This document shows, piece by piece, positions 41,498 through 50,421 of a DNA stretch of 64,000 nt. The DNA lies in NCBI GenBank assembly GCA_043778225.1, contig JAYWGM010000015.1, forward strand, positions 32,001 through 96,000, read 5' to 3'. Numbering within the stretch: the stretch's first letter is position 1; every line of letters starts with the position of its first letter. The notes below the pieces were generated by a model. The model did not search any database, had not been told where the DNA came from, and worked only from the letters and a program-made list of their open reading frames with translations. Source of the stretch: Deinococcales bacterium. Its GTDB lineage: Bacteria; Deinococcota; Deinococci; Deinococcales; JAAFIG01. A program made the position numbers and the translations under genes.

Positions 41498-42556
41498 GTG
41501 GGAATTCTTGTCTGGCTGATTATTATTAACGTCGCGGTTTTTGTTCACGAACTCGCCCATTATTTGGCGGCTCGAGCGCAAGGGGTGAATGTTAAGGCGT
41601 TTTCAATTGGCATGGGTCCGATTTTATGGCGGCGAGATTGGAAAAACACCGAATGGCGGGTTTCTTTGCTGCCAATTGGTGGCTATGTGGATATAGATGG
41701 TTTAGCCCCAAACCAATACGACGACCAAGGCAGACCAATTCCACCAACCCATGGTTTTGCTCGTCTGGGCTATTGGGGTAAATTTGCAGTTTTGTTTGCA
41801 GGACCACTTTCTAATATCATTTTAGCAGTGCTTATTGTTGGATTTGCGTTTTTGGGACAAGGCAAAGCAATTTTAGGGGAACGAATCCAGCTTGGGGTAC
41901 AACCCGCCTCTCAAGCCGAAAAAACAGGTCTTCGAACCAACGATTTTTTACTTAAAATCAACGGTCAAGTCGTCAAAGACACCGATACAGTCCGCGCTCA
42001 TTTACAGACCAATGGTCAGCGTATTTTTACGATTGAACGGGCTGGGAAAATTCTCGAGGTCAAGTTTGATTGGACACCGACCGTTTTCCCAGAACAAACC
42101 CGTCCCAAATTTGGGGTCTCGATTGGGCGTGAAGCGCGCTATGAGCCAATGCCGATTGGTGAAGCCTTTGGACAAAGTGCCACGACCTTAATCGGTGGGA
42201 TTCCACAGTTTATAGAAGCCATTGTTGGCGGCATTTTCCGCACGGTCACATTGCAGCGCGATGAAAATTTGCAGGGTCCAGTTGGAGCGGTCAGTGCCAC
42301 CGCCGAAGTTGCACGCCAAGGATTTTTTCCAGTCTTGTTCTTGGCTGGCGTAATTAACCTGTCTTTGGGTCTTTTTAACCTTTTACCAATACCTGGCTTA
42401 GATGGCGGTCGAATTCTACTCTCGAGCATTGTGGCTTTGCGCCGTAAGCCTTTTGCGCCCGGACAAGAAGAAAAAATTAACTTTGCTGGCTTTATTTTTG
42501 TGATGGTCTTTATTCTCTTGGTGACTGTCCAAGATATTAGTAAATTGGTGCGATGA
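41498..42556 (+). CDS. rseP: M50 site-2 protease with PDZ domain (RseP-like)
   Basis: HELAH, NLLPIPGLDGG. Confidence 0.88.
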   Translation: MGILVWLIIINVAVFVHELAHYLAARAQGVNVKAFSIGMGPILWRRDWKNTEWRVSLLPIGGYVDIDGLAPNQYDDQGRPIPPTHGFARLGYWGKFAVLFAGPLSNIILAVLIVGFAFLGQGKAILGERIQLGVQPASQAEKTGLRTNDFLLKINGQVVKDTDTVRAHLQTNGQRIFTIERAGKILEVKFDWTPTVFPEQTRPKFGVSIGREARYEPMPIGEAFGQSATTLIGGIPQFIEAIVGGIFRTVTLQRDENLQGPVGAVSATAEVARQGFFPVLFLAGVINLSLGLFNLLPIPGLDGGRILLSSIVALRRKPFAPGQEEKINFAGFIFVMVFILLVTVQDISKLVR

Positions 42557-43203
42557 ATCCAGAGCCGCAACCAAAGATGATTACGGTTTTGATTCCGGCT
42601 TTTAATGAAGCCAAAACTGTGGCAAATGTGGTTCAGGTGGCTCGAGAAGCTGGTTTTTTGCAGATTTTTGTAATCAGCGACGGCAGCACTGACCAAACCG
42701 TGATTCAGGCTAAAAATGCTGGTGCAAAGGTTCTTGAACTCTACCCAAATCAGGGTAAAGGAGCAGCCGTCAAAGCTGGCGCATTGCAAGCCACGAGTCA
42801 GTATTTACTGCTGCTCGATGCGGATTTACTTAAACTCGAGGTGCAACACCTACACGCCATGCTCGAGCCAGTCCAACGTGGGCAAGCCGATACCACGGCT
42901 GGGCTTTTTGTTGGTGGTGGTGCAATCACCGATTTTGGCAACCGAGCCACACCACAATGGAGCGGACAACGCCTGATTCCACGCCAAACGATTTTATCAG
43001 CTAGAAACCTCGAGACGGCTGGCTATGGCATCGAAGTGGCAATCAATGACCAGATTGCGCTCGAGCAATTAAGACTCGAGTACATAGACTTAAAAGGTGT
43101 CTCGCAGGTGATAAAAGAGCAAAAACTAGGGCTGATTGCTGGTTTAGCCCGCCGTCTTAAAATGTACTGGCAAATTCTGCGCTACAGCACCAGCAAACGC
43201 TAA
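42553..43203 (+). CDS. Glycosyltransferase family 2
   Basis: IPAFNE, DGSTD, GKG, DAD. Confidence 0.9.
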   Translation: MNPEPQPKMITVLIPAFNEAKTVANVVQVAREAGFLQIFVISDGSTDQTVIQAKNAGAKVLELYPNQGKGAAVKAGALQATSQYLLLLDADLLKLEVQHLHAMLEPVQRGQADTTAGLFVGGGAITDFGNRATPQWSGQRLIPRQTILSARNLETAGYGIEVAINDQIALEQLRLEYIDLKGVSQVIKEQKLGLIAGLARRLKMYWQILRYSTSKR

Positions 43204-44195
43204 TCGCGTGGTGTCTGGAAATGCTTGAGCAGCATCTTTGGACTTAAACTGAGCAGTGTATGCACCACGGCTGGGTCAAACTGCGAACCCGCACCACGCT
43301 CCAAACGCGCTCGAGCTTCGGGGATTGGCAATGCTGCTCGGTACGGTCGGGTCGTGGTCATGGCATCAAAAGCATCCACCACCGAAATAATTCGCCCACC
43401 CAAAGGAATATCGCTTTCGCCTAATTTATCGGGGTAGCCCGTGCCATCCCAGCGTTCATGATGAGCCCGTACCATCGGTGCAACTTCATCGCCTTGAGGT
43501 AACTTGGCGGCGATTTCTGCGCCGTGAACTGGGTGTAAACGCATAATATCCCATTCTTCGGGGCTTAACGCACTGGGCTTACGCAAAATACTGGCTGGAA
43601 CGGCGATTTTACCAATGTCGTGCAGCAAACCAGCCGCCCGAACGGCTGCCACTTCTCGAGAAACCCGACCCATCTGCAATGCCACATGACCCGATAAGTA
43701 GCGCAACCGCTCGACATGAAGAGCAGTGTACGGGTCGTGCTTTTCGACAGTTTGTGATAAAGACTTCATGATTCCATAATGGTCTTCAATGCCCAGACTT
43801 TGCAGGTATTTACGGCACATTCGCTCGACTCGAGTCCGAATCCCTCGAGAATTCCAAGGGGCAGCCACAACATCGTCTGCCCCAATCAATAATAAATGAT
43901 CTTCTAAATCGAGTTGTTCGGCACTGAGCATCACCAGAATTGGCACATTGGTGTGTGGGTCGGATTTAATGGTGCGAATTAAATGAGGCGTGTACCCCTC
44001 GGCGGGTCCTAAAATGACACCATCAATCACACCACTGGCACATAGACCAATCACTTCTTCGGGTGTAAAGGCTGGGATATAACTCATTCCAATGCTTTGT
44101 AACTCGAGAAACTCTGGGTTGAGAACTGTGGTGTCATAAGCCAGCACAGCCACACGCATTGGGCGATTGATAATCACATTATCCTCGTAGTTCAT
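43200..44195 (-). CDS. HD-GYP cyclic-dinucleotide phosphodiesterase with degenerate receiver domain
   Basis: LLHDIGK, HHERWDGTGYP, VDAFDAM..RPY. Confidence 0.9.
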   Translation of the reverse strand: MNYEDNVIINRPMRVAVLAYDTTVLNPEFLELQSIGMSYIPAFTPEEVIGLCASGVIDGVILGPAEGYTPHLIRTIKSDPHTNVPILVMLSAEQLDLEDHLLLIGADDVVAAPWNSRGIRTRVERMCRKYLQSLGIEDHYGIMKSLSQTVEKHDPYTALHVERLRYLSGHVALQMGRVSREVAAVRAAGLLHDIGKIAVPASILRKPSALSPEEWDIMRLHPVHGAEIAAKLPQGDEVAPMVRAHHERWDGTGYPDKLGESDIPLGGRIISVVDAFDAMTTTRPYRAALPIPEARARLERGAGSQFDPAVVHTLLSLSPKMLLKHFQTPRD

Positions 44196-44198
44196 AGA

Positions 44199-46151
44199 CT
44201 AATTAACGCGGAACTTCATCTCGCGCTTTAATTGCGCTAAGGTGGGCGGCAATTCACCGACTTCATGTAAAAACTGCGATTCGACCTTACTCATGGCTTT
44301 GCGGCTTGCCAGTGCGCCTTCGACTTCCCCGGTGGCACGAACCAACAATTCGTTGAGCGATTCATCCAATGGTTCAACTTTTAATAACCGTTCTGTTAAG
44401 CGCCGACAGGCTTGGAAGTCTCCAGATTCATACATTTCTTGCACCAATTTTAAGCCACTGCGAACCAATAACCATTCCATGTTTGCTCGAACCTCCTCGA
44501 TCCACTGTCCCTCGAAGCCGCGCATAAATGGACCACGGCACAACTCGAGGGCTTGGTAGAACTCATTTTCGGAAGGGGCGTGTAGCAATTGCATAGCTTG
44601 GTTGTAATCGAATTCGAGTGGTATATTTCCAGTATCAACAGAATAGGACTTGGTAAAACGATCGTAAGCAAACTTGATAGAAGGCACAGCTTGATTCAGT
44701 TCATAACGCGAAGTATGAAAGTAATTGCGGGCTGCTTCGACATCTTTGGAGTCTTCAAAAACCTCGCTCAGGATTTTCTCGAGTGAACTCTGTGGGTAAA
44801 TTAGCAAGTAAGCCATAACTGCAAAGGAACGTTGGAGCTTACAACTAATCGGCTGACCATTGAGCGAAACCATCGGTGAACCTAAAGAAAGAAACGAAAT
44901 CGTATCGGGCAGGGGGCGCGAAAAAAGAGCTTGGCTTGGGATACTGGAGCCTTGCAAAGAAAGCATCCCATAACTCGAGGCAACCTCAGTTAGTACACTT
45001 AAATCACCAATAAAACGCTTTTCTAGCTCGAGAAATGCCGAACTTTCGGTGATGCTGACAATATCGGTTAAAGAATCTAAAATTGTCGTGGCTTTGGCGG
45101 CGTGTCCAAGTTTGGCGTGTGCATAGGCTAATTGTAACAAAGTCCAACCCAACTCGCGCCGCCACTCGAGGTCGGCAAAGGTGGCTTGAGACAATTCTAA
45201 AAAGGGGATGGCTGTTTCATATTCGCCGAGTGCATTGTGGTACTGCCCTTTGCGGTGAGCAAAGAGGGCTTTTTCGGATTGTTGCTCTGCAAAAAGCTCA
45301 AACTGAATAAACTTACTTCTAGCAAAAGTGTACTCTTGTTTATAGATAATTATCCCTATTAAGTTGAAATATACACGACAGATACTGGATTTATAATCAA
45401 TTTGTGCCTCTGGACAGTTGGTTATACTCAATAAGCCAGTTATGGATTCTTCTACCTGTTGGTCTACAAATGCCAGAAGATTGGATACGATGCTTCTATT
45501 GACTCTTAACTGAGGATTGGTATTTTCACTAAATTTCTCAAGTAAATCTCGAGACTGCCGATACTGTCCTAGATAAAATAAAATCTGCGATTTACTCAAA
45601 TTAAGGTAGGATTTCCAAATCTCTGATGCGCCTGCGATTGAATTATCAATAATTCTAATTGCTTCATTGTCTAACCCACGCAGATGCAAAACTGTAGAGA
45701 GACTTTGAGCGATGGTTTGTACCAATGAGCCTATATTTTTTTCTGTCTGTGCCTCAAACCAAACCTCTTTTAGCATTTGTTCGGCTTGGCAAAGTTTGTT
45801 GTTGCGAAATAGAACTTCGCCTTGGATGTATCTAAGTTGTAATGACTCTTTTTTTAAGAGTTTTGTCGTATCAATTTGTCGAATTTCATAGTCAATATTT
45901 TCAAATTTATTCTGAACCACAGACAATTGAATCAAGTCAACAGCTGCCCCATTTTCTTGTCGTTTTGAAGCGCGGCGCAGGTATATCTCAGCTTGTAAGA
46001 AGTCGCCAAGACCCCAGAAAGCTCGTCCGATGAGCCTATCCTCTTGTGGCGTTGGTGAAACTAAGCCGCCATAAACGCTTATGGCTTCTTGATAGCGCCC
46101 AGACTGTACAAGTGGTTGTATTGGAGGACTATACGTGGTTGCAAGGCTCAT
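44199..46151 (-). CDS. TPR-like helical-repeat protein with C-terminal winged-helix and BTAD domain
   Basis: TPR-like helices; LG.P.V..NG, AYLL, YFH..RY.L, ALEL.RGPF, EPLDE; AAGGAAG RBS before MSLAT. Confidence 0.8.
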   Translation of the reverse strand: MSLATTYSPPIQPLVQSGRYQEAISVYGGLVSPTPQEDRLIGRAFWGLGDFLQAEIYLRRASKRQENGAAVDLIQLSVVQNKFENIDYEIRQIDTTKLLKKESLQLRYIQGEVLFRNNKLCQAEQMLKEVWFEAQTEKNIGSLVQTIAQSLSTVLHLRGLDNEAIRIIDNSIAGASEIWKSYLNLSKSQILFYLGQYRQSRDLLEKFSENTNPQLRVNRSIVSNLLAFVDQQVEESITGLLSITNCPEAQIDYKSSICRVYFNLIGIIIYKQEYTFARSKFIQFELFAEQQSEKALFAHRKGQYHNALGEYETAIPFLELSQATFADLEWRRELGWTLLQLAYAHAKLGHAAKATTILDSLTDIVSITESSAFLELEKRFIGDLSVLTEVASSYGMLSLQGSSIPSQALFSRPLPDTISFLSLGSPMVSLNGQPISCKLQRSFAVMAYLLIYPQSSLEKILSEVFEDSKDVEAARNYFHTSRYELNQAVPSIKFAYDRFTKSYSVDTGNIPLEFDYNQAMQLLHAPSENEFYQALELCRGPFMRGFEGQWIEEVRANMEWLLVRSGLKLVQEMYESGDFQACRRLTERLLKVEPLDESLNELLVRATGEVEGALASRKAMSKVESQFLHEVGELPPTLAQLKREMKFRVN

Positions 46152-46202
46152 AAATTTGGCTTCCTTATGATTATTGAAACTAAGCGGTACGGAGGAACAC
46201 AT

Positions 46203-46313
46203 ATGAAAAAAATTATTAGCTTGATTCTGGTTGTAGTCGGTTTTGCCTTCAGTGGTGTCGCATCTGCTACTTTCGGTGGAAACATTCCCCCAGAAGTCTG
46301 CTCGAAGTGCTAA
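46203..46313 (+). CDS. 36-aa secreted pre-peptide (candidate signalling peptide)
   Basis: GGAGG RBS at 46191-46195; MKK, hydrophobic core and A-S-A cleavage site; tail TFGGNIPPEVCSKC. Confidence 0.75.
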   Translation: MKKIISLILVVVGFAFSGVASATFGGNIPPEVCSKC

Positions 46314-46363
46314 GACAGGATACTACAACTTTCTAATACACTCTGGTCAAAATACACATTAGC

Positions 46364-46400
46364 TTCGGCGGGTTTCTCTAACCGCCGAACTATTTTTATT
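46364..46400 (+). terminator. Intrinsic terminator after the peptide gene
   Basis: TTCGGCGG...CCGCCGAA followed by CTATTTTTATT. Confidence 0.7.
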
Positions 46401-46439
46401 ATGTACCCTGTCGTTGGGTGAGAGTCTATAGACTAAGAG

Positions 46440-47375
46440 TCAGACTACAGTCTGGTTCTGAAAAATCTGCTCGAGACCCGAGGCAATATCCACCAAACTC
46501 GAGACCGCCATAAAGTGCTTTGCGCCTTGACCAACGGCTGCGAATGGAACTGGGTTGCGGGTGTGGGTTTTGATACGTAAGTCCTCAAAGTTGCCGTGGT
46601 CGGAAGTGACCAAAAAAAGCGTGTCCTTTGCTTGGAACTCGAGACACGCCAAACAAAAAGACTCGAGCCGATGGGCAAACGCCATAGCCTCCTCGAGATT
46701 CATTTTATGCCCAAGGTGGTCTGTCCACCATTGGTCAAAGACCGTGACTTTGGCTTGACTACCCATAAATAAAAATGCCCATTGGCGGATTTGCTCGAGA
46801 TTGTTAGGCTGATTGGGCAAATGCAGCATGGGGGCTATGCCAATGCCGTTGGCTTGTTCTATGCCAATGCTTGTGGCTTGTTCAGTGCCAATACCCTTGG
46901 CTTGTTCAGTGCCAATGCCAGCTTGTTTAGTGTCAGCTTGCTCGAGGGTTGCTCCTGCGGCTAAGGCGCTGGTGGCAATCGCATTGAGGCGAACTTTGCC
47001 ATTTTGTAGTGCTTCTAAATAGCTATTCGGGTAATAATTGGCGAGTCGGACATTGCCAAGGCGCTTGAAAATGCTTTGCTCGAGTAATGGGCGCAAACTC
47101 GGACTGACCCAAGGTCCATAATGAAACCCCAAATGGGCGGCGGCATTGATACCTGTCAGAATTGTGGTCTGTCCGGTGCCACTTTGCGGTAAGCCCGTAA
47201 TCCCCAAATTGGCATCGATTGGTCTGGTTATACATTCTGAACTCGAGGTAAAGTTGGGCGTGCTGATGCCTAGTTTTTGTAAGGTTGGTAACTCGAGACC
47301 CGCAAAAGGGTGGGCGATGGTGTCGTTGGGTTCTCGTAAACCCACGCCGTCCAGCATTAACCAAGCAACTCGCAT
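46440..47375 (-). CDS. Alkaline-phosphatase-superfamily metalloenzyme (phosphoglycerate mutase-like)
   Basis: LDGVG, PQSGTGQT, DHLGH, TSDHGN.ED...HT.NPVP. Confidence 0.8.
   Translation of the reverse strand: MRVAWLMLDGVGLREPNDTIAHPFAGLELPTLQKLGISTPNFTSSSECITRPIDANLGITGLPQSGTGQTTILTGINAAAHLGFHYGPWVSPSLRPLLEQSIFKRLGNVRLANYYPNSYLEALQNGKVRLNAIATSALAAGATLEQADTKQAGIGTEQAKGIGTEQATSIGIEQANGIGIAPMLHLPNQPNNLEQIRQWAFLFMGSQAKVTVFDQWWTDHLGHKMNLEEAMAFAHRLESFCLACLEFQAKDTLFLVTSDHGNFEDLRIKTHTRNPVPFAAVGQGAKHFMAVSSLVDIASGLEQIFQNQTVV
46837..46944. repeat. Intragenic 24-bp tandem repeat (about 4.5 units)
   Basis: Encodes EQAKGIGT/EQATSIGI/EQANGIGI. Confidence 0.85.
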
Positions 47376-47503
47376 ATGTTAGAGCATAACGCACTTTTGA
47401 ATAGCTTGCCTCAAACTCTGACATTGAGTATGAGTTTTAGCGATTACGGTATAAATTGAAAGTATTAAGAATTTTGTCAGTTTTGCCAATGTAGACTGCC
47501 TTG

Positions 47504-47833
47504 GTGAAAAAACCTATCTCTGCCACAGAAACCGCCCTTCGTATGATTGGTCGTAAAGGCACATTCTTGATTCTTGAAATGCTACTGAAAGGTGCTACAC
47601 GCTTTACCACGCTCGAGAAAGCCTTAAAAGTCAGTCCAAGAACGCTGTCTGAGCGCCTAAAAGAACTCGAATCATACGATGTGGTGAGCCGTAAAGCCTT
47701 TCCCGAAGTACCGCCACGAGTTGAGTACAGCCTGACCGAAAAAGGCGAAGCTCTACACCTTGTCTTTGAAGGTATCCGCGAGTGGACAGAAGCCTTTGAG
47801 AAGCCTAAAAAGAAAGCTGTCAAGAAAAAATAA
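47504..47833 (+). CDS. HxlR-family winged-helix regulator
   Basis: SPRTLSERLKELE, PPRVEYSLT. Confidence 0.9.
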   Translation: MKKPISATETALRMIGRKGTFLILEMLLKGATRFTTLEKALKVSPRTLSERLKELESYDVVSRKAFPEVPPRVEYSLTEKGEALHLVFEGIREWTEAFEKPKKKAVKKK

Positions 47834-49812: not shown

Positions 49813-50421
49813 TCATAGTTCATCCTTGTATTTGACCAATAATTCCTCGAGGGCTTCGCGCAGTACGCTGGCTTCGGTGCGACCTGTGGCGCTGCTTAAT
49901 TTACTCAGTCGCTCGAGTTGGGCTTTTGGATAAAAGTTACTTTTCAGGGTCATTTTATCTTCAACATAAATCGCCACGCGGCTGCGTCCTTCGCGTTTAG
50001 CGCGGTACATCGCTTCGTCGGCACAGCGCATCAGGTCAGCAATGGTTTTGGCGTGTGGTGGCTTGGCGGCAATGCCAACACTCAGTTGGATTTTTCTCGG
50101 GATTTCGGCACTGACATAGTTGCTCGAGAAATGATTGCGAATTTCCTCGAGCAGAATCAAGGCACTCTCGGCGGTGCTGTCTGGAATGGCGGCAGCGTAT
50201 TCGTCGCCGCCGATGCGTCCCACAATTGCATTGGCTGGAAGGCTGCCGCCTAAAGTTCGCTCGAGACTGCGAAGCACACTATCGCCAGCAGCATGACCAA
50301 GGCTGTCGTTGATTTCCTTAAAGTGGTCAAGGTCTATTAAGGCGAGGGCAAGATGGACGTTATCGAGGGCATTCAGGGCTTGCTCGAAGTCGTGACGATT
50401 GAGAACGGGTAGATAATTCAT
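49813..50421 (-). CDS. GGDEF-domain protein fused to a C-terminal ribbon-helix-helix
   Basis: DLDHFKEIND.LGH..GD, RIGGDEY, AD.AMY.AK; tail QLERL..LS..TGR.EASVLREAL. Confidence 0.85.
   Translation of the reverse strand: MNYLPVLNRHDFEQALNALDNVHLALALIDLDHFKEINDSLGHAAGDSVLRSLERTLGGSLPANAIVGRIGGDEYAAAIPDSTAESALILLEEIRNHFSSNYVSAEIPRKIQLSVGIAAKPPHAKTIADLMRCADEAMYRAKREGRSRVAIYVEDKMTLKSNFYPKAQLERLSKLSSATGRTEASVLREALEELLVKYKDEL

Follow-up and report, generated by a model that had tools for sequence, protein, structure and literature searches.

A putative peptide-receptor circuit combining a TPR-SARP regulator with a small secreted peptide in Deinococcota

A stretch of 64,000 nucleotides (nt) from a Deinococcales bacterium (GenBank assembly GCA_043778225.1, contig JAYWGM010000015.1, positions 32,001 to 96,000 of the forward strand; hereafter called the window) was analyzed. 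It carries a gene for a pre-peptide of 36 amino acids (aa) located head-to-head with the gene of a regulator, in which a tetratricopeptide repeat (TPR)-like superhelix precedes a Streptomyces antibiotic regulatory protein (SARP) module; the regulator gene is followed by a gene encoding an HD-GYP phosphodiesterase. With a probability of about 0.6, we regard these genes as a peptide-receptor circuit resembling the RRNPP systems, equipped with a different output domain and co-transcribed with a cyclic-dinucleotide phosphodiesterase. This reading is based on the conserved association of receptor genes with small ORFs of the same kind, on the fold of the sensor, and on the much faster divergence of the sensor domain as compared to the output domain.

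Identification of a small gene encoding a putative secreted peptide

The pre-peptide gene (46203 to 46313, forward strand) was identified from a list of open reading frames (ORFs), by comparison with homologues, and by a strict rule applied genome-wide. Its ATG is preceded at a distance of 6 nt by the Shine-Dalgarno sequence GGAGGA (46191 to 46196, forward strand). The encoded pre-peptide starts with M-K-K, with K-K as n-region, and continues into a hydrophobic core with a Kyte-Doolittle mean of 3.09 over 12 aa; residues 1-22 constitute a predicted Sec-type signal with A-S-A at residues 20-22. By a home-made rule, the features of a Sec signal were all found, namely a basic n-region, a hydrophobic h-region, and small residues at positions -3 and -1. 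The tail predicted to be exported is a 14-mer, TFGGNIPPEVCSKC, which ends with C-S-K-C.

An intrinsic terminator of the peptide gene was located at 46360 to 46402 (forward strand). Its hairpin (46360 to 46392) begins 46 nt past the peptide stop codon, consists of eight G+C-rich pairs and three additional pairs with a 10-nt loop, and is followed by a T-run. The folding energy was -16.2 kcal/mol (z = -4.66), and none of 200 shuffled sequences folded equally well. A scan for consensus promoters and terminators showed no excess over shuffled sequences; it overlooked this terminator because the scan permits loops of up to 8 nt. The hairpin was kept in five of six same-genus orthologous loci, L010 being without it, and most peptide genes of orthologues and paralogues have a GGAGG-type ribosome-binding site.

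The receptor gene (44199 to 46151, reverse strand) encodes a protein of 650 aa when read from the ATG at 46151, and 51 nt separate this ATG from the peptide ATG on the opposite strand. The HD-GYP gene (43200 to 44195, reverse strand) encodes 331 aa; the receptor stop codon starts at 44199 and the HD-GYP ATG lies at 44195, leaving 3 nt between the two genes. The original prediction, made by a model from the DNA letters and an ORF list, had described a 36-aa ORF with a GGAGG site, a 22-aa Sec-type signal ending in A-S-A, a 14-aa tail and a terminator of its own, placed head-to-head and 51 bp away from a 650-aa protein whose stop codon is 3 bp from the start of an HD-GYP gene. All of these features were confirmed.

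Gene callers do predict small ORFs of this kind, the sole name attached to them being 'hypothetical protein', and neither Pfam nor NCBIfam contains a family for the peptides. An Rfam scan of positions 42500 to 47600 revealed no riboswitch and no known leader; a single match to a miRNA was a chance match (E = 0.69). Among the public sequencing runs, no RNA run was listed as carrying the locus; two DNA runs contain it in full, and these may be the source of the sequence.

Association of receptor genes with divergent small ORFs

In addition to the 650-aa receptor, the host genome (G000; 4.03 Mb, 107 contigs, 89% complete) encodes two full-length paralogues of it, located on contigs C72 and C80. 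All three paralogues possess their own divergent small ORF with ATG, GGAGG, and signal-like N-terminus, and the tails encoded by these ORFs are unrelated. The strict rule was defined as an ORF of 28-60 aa on the divergent strand with ATG, Shine-Dalgarno sequence, net positive n-region, and an uncharged window of 12 residues with a hydropathy of ≥2.0. As a control, the 900 nt located 5' of every G000 ORF of ≥300 aa were examined. The rule matched three out of 1682 control regions, and these were the loci of the three receptor paralogues; the layout of receptor and peptide genes is therefore far beyond chance.

Furthermore, 50 loci with an upstream flank of at least 300 nt each were surveyed, comprising 31 of a first set and 19 from 20 additional regions. 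Left out were L004 to L006 (larger proteins with a bacterial transcriptional activator domain (BTAD), not full-length relatives), L014 (no upstream flank), and L038 (no tblastn hit). The strict rule was matched on the divergent strand at 30 loci (20/31 and 10/19) and on the co-directional strand at none of the 50, counts which come from loci related by descent and do not represent independent trials. With a relaxed rule confined to ATG starts (no Shine-Dalgarno sequence required, 26-90 aa, within 1200 nt), 42 of the 50 family loci were matched as compared to 102 of 1670 G000 control regions (6.1%). Homologues lacking adjacent small secreted ORFs had been named beforehand as the outcome that would speak against the proposed circuit; under both rules, most loci carry such an ORF. 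On this comparative evidence, the ORF of 36 codons is a genuine gene that has been conserved.

Domain architecture and fold of the receptor

The receptor start codon at 46151 and an AAGGAA ribosome-binding site are conserved in the orthologues; an alternative in-frame ATG at 46202 would yield a receptor of 667 aa. The protein is soluble as judged by hydropathy, with a highest 19-aa mean of 1.07 and no membrane segment. Pfam identified a BTAD at residues 528-607 (29.2 bits, cut-off 22.1) as well as several TPR families.

An AlphaFold2 (AF2) model of the receptor was calculated from a 32-row alignment and reached a mean predicted local distance difference test (pLDDT) value of 88.1, with the TPR region mostly above 85. 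According to this model and to alignment with VIA-align, residues 10-400 (44952 to 46124, reverse strand) form a TPR-like superhelix, the presumed peptide-binding sensor. A disordered linker (residues 403-412) connects it to residues 418-523 (44583 to 44900, reverse strand), which fold into a three-stranded sheet, three helices, and a hairpin, and were assigned by AF2 models and Foldseek as an OmpR-type winged helix-turn-helix (wHTH). Residues 528-649 (44205 to 44570, reverse strand) form six helices and were assigned by Pfam, fold, and Foldseek as the BTAD helical domain, which jointly with the wHTH makes up the SARP module. The domain order is TPR followed by SARP, and no ATPase domain was detected by Pfam or in the model.

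The C-terminal 239 residues modelled alone gave a pLDDT of 92.8. With this part as the query, all six Foldseek matches at E ≤0.001 were either AfsR (8k60/8hvr) or EmbR (2fez/2ff4) with template modelling (TM) scores by query of 0.66-0.75, and the next match followed at an E-value of 4e-3. By structural modelling, the C-terminal part of the receptor is a SARP module consisting of wHTH and BTAD. The original prediction of TPR-like helices with a C-terminal wHTH/BTAD region agrees with these results. It had also remarked that the DNA-binding members of RRNPP carry an N-terminal HTH rather than a C-terminal SARP-like domain; here the TPR region starts at about residue 10, and the DNA-binding module is C-terminal.

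Foldseek with the whole 650-aa model was not informative, as its matches were solely long TPR proteins of eukaryotes. For ranking of the TPR fold, the top 961 Foldseek chains were re-scored with VIA-align. The highest score was obtained for MalT domain III (Z = 28.3, 339 residues aligned, root mean square deviation (rmsd) 3.7). It was followed by Rap of phage phi3T with pheromones (Z = 27.9-28.2), RapJ-PhrC (Z = 27.2), NprR (Z = 27.1 for the apo form and 25.6 with NprX), and RapF-PhrF (Z = 26.9); Rap proteins overall scored 25.3-28.2, and AimR about 23. The matches to RRNPP structures span nearly the whole chains, covering 320-334 residues with an rmsd of 3.5-4.4. Unrelated TPR proteins, among them subunits of the anaphase-promoting complex (APC/C), reached Z-scores of ≤24.8 with an rmsd of mostly ≥4.7. 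A complex of the 14-mer and the TPR domain (residues 1-410) was also predicted; the score was 0.02 (mark 0.32) with controls not folded, and this result is neutral on binding.

Sequence identity among same-genus orthologues was 39-77% for the TPR domain, 48-91% for the wHTH, and 87-96% for the BTAD. Such a pattern would be expected of a sensor which follows a changing ligand with its output remaining fixed. The case for co-variation of receptor and peptide is based on these domain identities together with an inspection of the peptides by clade.

Conservation and diversity of the peptides

The six same-genus pre-peptides have kept start, stop, a length of 36-39 aa, and the signal character, with about half of the residues changed. 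G25, P29, P30, C33, and C36 are invariant in all six, and all six end with the C-x-x-C tail, which most other clades do not have. The tails predicted in other clades are short; most of them are rich in Gly and contain a hydrophobic residue, as in NPGTGGFGG, NPAGSGAGTF, and GPGTGLGGGL. Nearly all listed members have A-x-A or V-x-A in front of the tail, corresponding to small residues at -3 and -1.

Tandem peptide units were found in four precursors, three units in L011 and two units each in L013, L042, and L044. Many propeptides of the RRNPPA group likewise contain multiple peptides, as described in the available parts of two papers (PMC9765709; PMC11343458). S-G-T-F-P-P, the sequence repeated in L011, can be aligned with the G-x-I/L-F/P-P-P core found in the window's clade. 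This alignment suggests that the active part of the window peptide is probably the core, to which the C-x-x-C tail would be added in this genus alone. At L034 (77 to 320), two tandem peptide genes were found upstream of one receptor gene; they encode near-identical signals and different Cys-containing tails.

Receptors of family f5 (L036 to L045) consist of about 545-554 aa and end inside the BTAD region; one of them, L039, showed merely weak NNH6 and TPR matches in Pfam. The corresponding tails comprise 6-9 residues, most with a terminal Arg (GVSMHSR, GLHVSSR), and eight of nine loci encode the peptide 420-580 nt upstream of the receptor gene.

Alternative roles of the small gene

The composition of the peptides also bears on explanations other than a peptide signal. 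The TPR-SARP protein could be a pathway-specific activator sensing a metabolite or a protein, with the peptide only as its regulated product, for example of antimicrobial, surface-active, or matrix function, in the manner of AfsR and afsS. It fits such a role that SARPs typically switch on neighbouring genes and that AfsR binds the afsS promoter, as stated in the accessible part of PMC10936776. Additionally, the sensor has its best structural match in MalT domain III, a non-peptide sensor, and low-complexity sequences rich in Gly/Pro/Thr are found in many of the mature parts. However, only receptor and peptide are conserved across the clades, and no conserved gene for immunity, export, or modification accompanies them. 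Divergence of the sensor domain far exceeds that of the output and keeps pace with the changing peptides. Furthermore, mature parts of no more than 6-10 residues are predicted, and some precursors contain tandem units; both features would fit signals better than effectors. We consider this explanation unlikely, although it is the strongest competitor of the peptide-receptor circuit.

Less probable is an uncleaved signal, by which the product would become a micro-protein that spans the membrane once and exposes a short tail outside the cell. It would act in its vicinity, for instance on a partner in the membrane, and would merely be controlled by the regulator. The ORF indeed encodes little beyond a hydrophobic helix and a short tail; the small residues at -3 and -1 argue against this role, the tandem tail units of the four precursors imply proteolytic release, and no gene for a membrane partner is conserved nearby. 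Finally, a chance frame in a divergent promoter region without any product, conceivable for just 36 codons, can practically be dismissed: the strict rule matched control regions at the receptor paralogues only and family loci on one strand only, and frame, start, stop, ribosome-binding site, and terminator are kept through a change of about 50% of the residues.

Candidate operator in the divergent control region

In the peptide-receptor circuit, the SARP module would bind next to the peptide promoter. According to the available text of PMC10936776, the binding sites of SARPs are direct repeats with a spacing of 11 or 22 bp, the 3' one being separated from the -10 region by 8 bp. A repeat scan of the window revealed a candidate SARP operator at 46107 to 46168 (forward strand), in which the 12-nt direct repeats TACAAGTGGTTG (46107) and TATACGTGGTTG (46130) are located 23 nt apart. 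By eye, a weaker third unit, TGGCTT, was recognized at 46157; it abuts a -10-like hexamer TATGAT at 46167.

Similar arrangements were found upstream of other peptide genes. L020, L022, and L024 contain a 9-mer three times with a period of 11 nt; in L028, two copies 11 nt apart are followed after 8 nt by TAGGCT; and in L002 a TCAG-containing unit occurs five times at 11-nt steps. Among 38 non-redundant loci, direct repeats of 8-mers with one mismatch allowed showed spacings of 10-11 nt (5 and 6 loci), 22-23 nt (5 and 6 loci), and 32 nt (4 loci), with shuffled sequences giving about one. These peaks are at best suggestive of SARP-like operators.

The HD-GYP gene downstream of the receptor gene

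In Pfam, the 331-aa protein matched HD_5 with 134.9 bits, and its HD-GYP domain comprises residues 139-317. A co-directional ORF of 322-382 aa was found 3' of the receptor gene in all nine orthologous loci with a downstream flank (L001, L007 to L011, and L013 to L015), which belong to three genera of family f1, uncultured Deinococcales. HD_5 was confirmed in eight of these ORFs; the ninth, in L008, is nearly identical to L007 and was outside the scan. The HD and HHExxDGxGYP motifs are intact, with H192, D193, H245, H246, E247, G253, Y254, and P255 invariant in eight of eight orthologues.

The N-terminal part of about 130 residues (about 13-135) aligns to the receiver of AdeR (E = 3e-5). In all eight orthologues, G, S, or E occupies the column of the AdeR residue which we take to be the phospho-acceptor Asp, and A, M, or L is found in the column of the conserved Lys. 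Because both residues are absent throughout, the N-terminus is by its sequence a pseudo-receiver and not a target of phosphorylation. An invariant K-S-D-P is kept at residues 77-80 in the pseudo-receiver of the window (43776 to 44195, reverse strand) and of the orthologues, and it may represent a partner-binding surface.

The closest solved HD-GYP enzymes are V-cGAP3 (E = 3e-38), which is specific for cyclic GMP-AMP (cGAMP), and PmGH; because of these two relatives, the substrate could be either cyclic di-GMP (c-di-GMP) or cGAMP. A stand-alone GGDEF protein of 202 aa (109.9 bits), whose tail weakly matches a ribbon-helix-helix, is encoded at 49813 to 50421 (reverse strand), 3.6 kb away from the HD-GYP operon.

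Proposed circuit and its weighing

In the circuit we propose, signal peptidase would cut the pre-peptide after A-S-A and release a peptide of 14 residues, which possibly is trimmed further. The mature peptide would consist of a G-x-hydrophobic-P-P core and a C-x-x-C tail, and the latter may form a disulphide ring outside the cell. After building up outside, the peptide would be taken up via binding proteins of the Opp/Dpp type; G000 contains 14 genes of this type (SBP_bac_5). Inside the cell, it would bind to the concave face of the cytoplasmic TPR domain, by which the SARP module would be released or dimerised. The SARP module would then bind the helically phased direct repeats beside the -10 region of the peptide promoter in the 51-nt control region shared by both genes. 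Transcription of the peptide gene would be raised, resulting in positive feedback, and the receptor-HD-GYP operon would be raised too. At a high level of peptide, c-di-GMP or a related cyclic dinucleotide would presumably be lowered.

A number of points weigh against this circuit. Signal peptides were scored by a home-made rule of hydropathy and charge plus inspection, and this rule is not SignalP. An any-start version of the relaxed rule matched 22-25% of the control regions, and because of this high background relaxed-only candidates were counted solely if they resembled the strict ones. Eight of the 50 loci (L021, L025, L027, L035, L041, L052, L054, and L055) have no divergent candidate even under the relaxed rule; at L021, a candidate peptide ORF sits about 400 nt downstream instead. 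The repeats of the window overlap the first receptor codons, their conservation in orthologues is not clear, and the test of repeat spacing used mononucleotide shuffles and related loci.

The top structural match, MalT domain III, is a small-molecule sensor; therefore, the fold alone does not prove a peptide ligand. Profile similarity to NprR (E = 1e-8), RapH (E = 1.2e-6), and RapF (E = 4e-4) ranked among that to CTR9, consensus TPR, BBS4, and IFIT. As similarity to NprR and Rap is thus no better than that to generic TPR proteins, we claim a shared shape and not membership in RRNPP. The original prediction of an RRNPP-like circuit feeding into cyclic-dinucleotide turnover is supported by the layout, the TPR fold, and the HD-GYP gene in nine of nine orthologous loci; no HD-GYP gene is located 3' of the paralogues L002 and L003 or at the Deinococcus loci, and the link is therefore a feature of the clade and not of the family. 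Furthermore, Deinococcota have an outer envelope layer, which leaves the exit and re-entry of a 1.4-kDa peptide unexplained. The whole support for the circuit consists of comparative evidence and structural prediction.

Comparison with known systems

The cassette resembles the RRNPP(A) systems Rap-Phr, NprR-NprX, PlcR-PapR, Rgg-SHP, and AimR-AimP in that the gene of a cytoplasmic TPR-type receptor adjoins a small gene for an exported pro-peptide. The superhelix superposes on those of Rap, NprR, and AimR with Z-scores of 23-28; moreover, several receptor-peptide pairs per genome, tandem units in some precursors, and a fast-diverging sensor are found in both, with the pairs being divergent here. 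Unlike in RRNPP(A), where the output is an N-terminal Xre-type HTH or, in Rap, a phosphatase/three-helix bundle, the output here is a C-terminal SARP module. The host belongs to Deinococcota, the two genes are divergent, the peptide of one clade ends with C-x-x-C, and sequence similarity does not exceed the level of generic TPR proteins. Judged from sequence comparison and models, the TPR-SARP cassette would work like an RRNPP system without being a member, its output apparently being borrowed from SARPs.

AfsR of Streptomyces coelicolor (SARP-NOD-TPR) also unites a SARP module with a TPR sensor in one protein and has a small gene as its target. The C-terminal 239 residues of the receptor match the SARP domain of AfsR with TM scores of 0.71-0.75. 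The afsS gene adjoins afsR, and AfsS is cytoplasmic. In contrast to AfsR and other large SARPs, the domain order is reversed here, a NOD/ATPase domain is absent, and the small gene encodes a pre-peptide with a signal peptide. In large SARPs, the other domains inhibit the SARP module, as reported in the accessible part of PMC10936776.

For the TPR part, the sensor of the STAND activator MalT, domain III, is the best single structural match. MalT senses maltotriose and contains an ATPase domain and a LuxR-type HTH; unlike the receptor described here, MalT is not known to have a small secreted peptide gene tied to it.

The HD-GYP protein is similar to RpfG-type REC-HD-GYP proteins and to V-cGAP3 (5z7c), PmGH (4mcw), and PA4781 (4r8z) in having a receiver-like N-terminus followed by an HD-GYP domain with intact motifs. 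It differs from RpfG by the loss of the acceptor Asp and the conserved Lys in its receiver in all eight orthologues. The DSF-RpfC-RpfG system is a known case of a quorum signal wired to cyclic-dinucleotide breakdown, as proposed here for the peptide.

Within the genus Deinococcus, Deide_19260 (COG3947) of D. deserti likewise combines an N-terminal input with a C-terminal SARP output. Its input is a phosphorylatable receiver, and no peptide gene beside it is reported in the available text (PMC3564903), whereas the receptor of the window has a TPR sensor.

Distribution in Deinococcota and prior literature

Of 364 Deinococcota genomes, 144 contained a match to the receptor family (E ≤1e-10). Excluding G000, matches per family were 17/18 (f1), 63/125 (f2), 0/23 (f3), 4/68 (f4), 59/128 (f5), and 0/1 (f6). 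A profile search yielded 467 representatives (50% clustering) at E ≤1e-30, and a word-index protein search at least 13 close relatives. A search with a 14-row alignment of orthologues returned only records of metagenome-assembled genomes from uncultured Deinococcales, the same as the window's clade. Relatives were also detected on plasmids of named Deinococcus strains, among them Deinococcus taeanensis TS293 and Deinococcus sp. KNUC1210, and the peptide ORF was confirmed in these two; the PLSDB gene tables of the two plasmids, which are incomplete, list no gene at the peptide ORF. The phage collection contained no match to the receptor. Look-alike TPR-BTAD clusters were found in Pseudomonadota, Chloroflexota, Actinomycetota, and Acidobacteriota by language-model similarity only.

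A full-text literature search, with subscription journals and supplements outside its range, revealed no publication in which TPR-SARP receptors or peptide signals of Deinococcota are described. The sole paper found on a Deinococcus SARP deals, in its available text, with the REC-SARP protein Deide_19260 of D. deserti (PMC3564903). The RRNPP_detector paper, in its accessible part, treats such peptide systems as a trait of Bacillota (PMC10075063).

Taken more broadly, we hold it about an even bet that uncultured Deinococcales, Deinococcus and, with a form of about 545 aa, a sister family harbor a large undescribed family of TPR-SARP receptors with their own short Sec-exported peptides, and that one genome often contains several such pairs, orthogonal to each other. 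If so, it would be the first quorum sensing of the RRNPP type, in which an exported peptide is re-imported and meets a cytoplasmic receptor, outside Bacillota. It would have arisen when an RRNPP/MalT-like sensor was joined to a SARP output, and in one clade it would be wired directly to cyclic-dinucleotide degradation by a co-transcribed pseudo-receiver HD-GYP protein. If true, a second, architecturally distinct family of peptide receptors exists in a phylum that branches deeply and possesses an outer envelope, and the Bacillota-only picture changes. It would also provide a natural peptide sensor driving a SARP activator and a peptide signal tied to cyclic-dinucleotide turnover in one operon. 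Orthogonal pairs of short peptides and receptors with a strong activator output could serve as parts for synthetic circuits in radiation-resistant and in thermophilic hosts. The presence of the cassette in cultured, named Deinococcus strains makes the idea directly testable.

Neighbouring genes

An RseP-type M50 site-2 protease with a PDZ domain is encoded at 41498 to 42556 (forward strand) of the window and is probably a housekeeping copy; relatives of RseP (Eep) process peptide pheromones in Firmicutes. The gene located at 46440 to 47375 (reverse strand), convergent with the peptide gene, encodes a protein of the metalloenzyme superfamily with a low-complexity insert of G-I-G-T-E-Q-A-type repeats. 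This protein has 311 aa in the window as compared to 279 aa in same-genus orthologues.

On the plasmid of Deinococcus sp. KNUC1210 (L069, 1 to 394), a gene for an S8 family serine peptidase was found just past the small peptide ORF, as a single case. Subtilisin-type proteases mature Phr peptides in Bacillus.

At the paralogous locus L003 (3444 to 4846), a 200-aa ORF without a Pfam family is located 27 nt downstream, together with a convergent ORF of 269 aa. A convergent HNH endonuclease gene was found downstream of the paralogue L002 (2535 to 3233). Possibly, these two other G000 cassettes adjoin mobile or defence genes.

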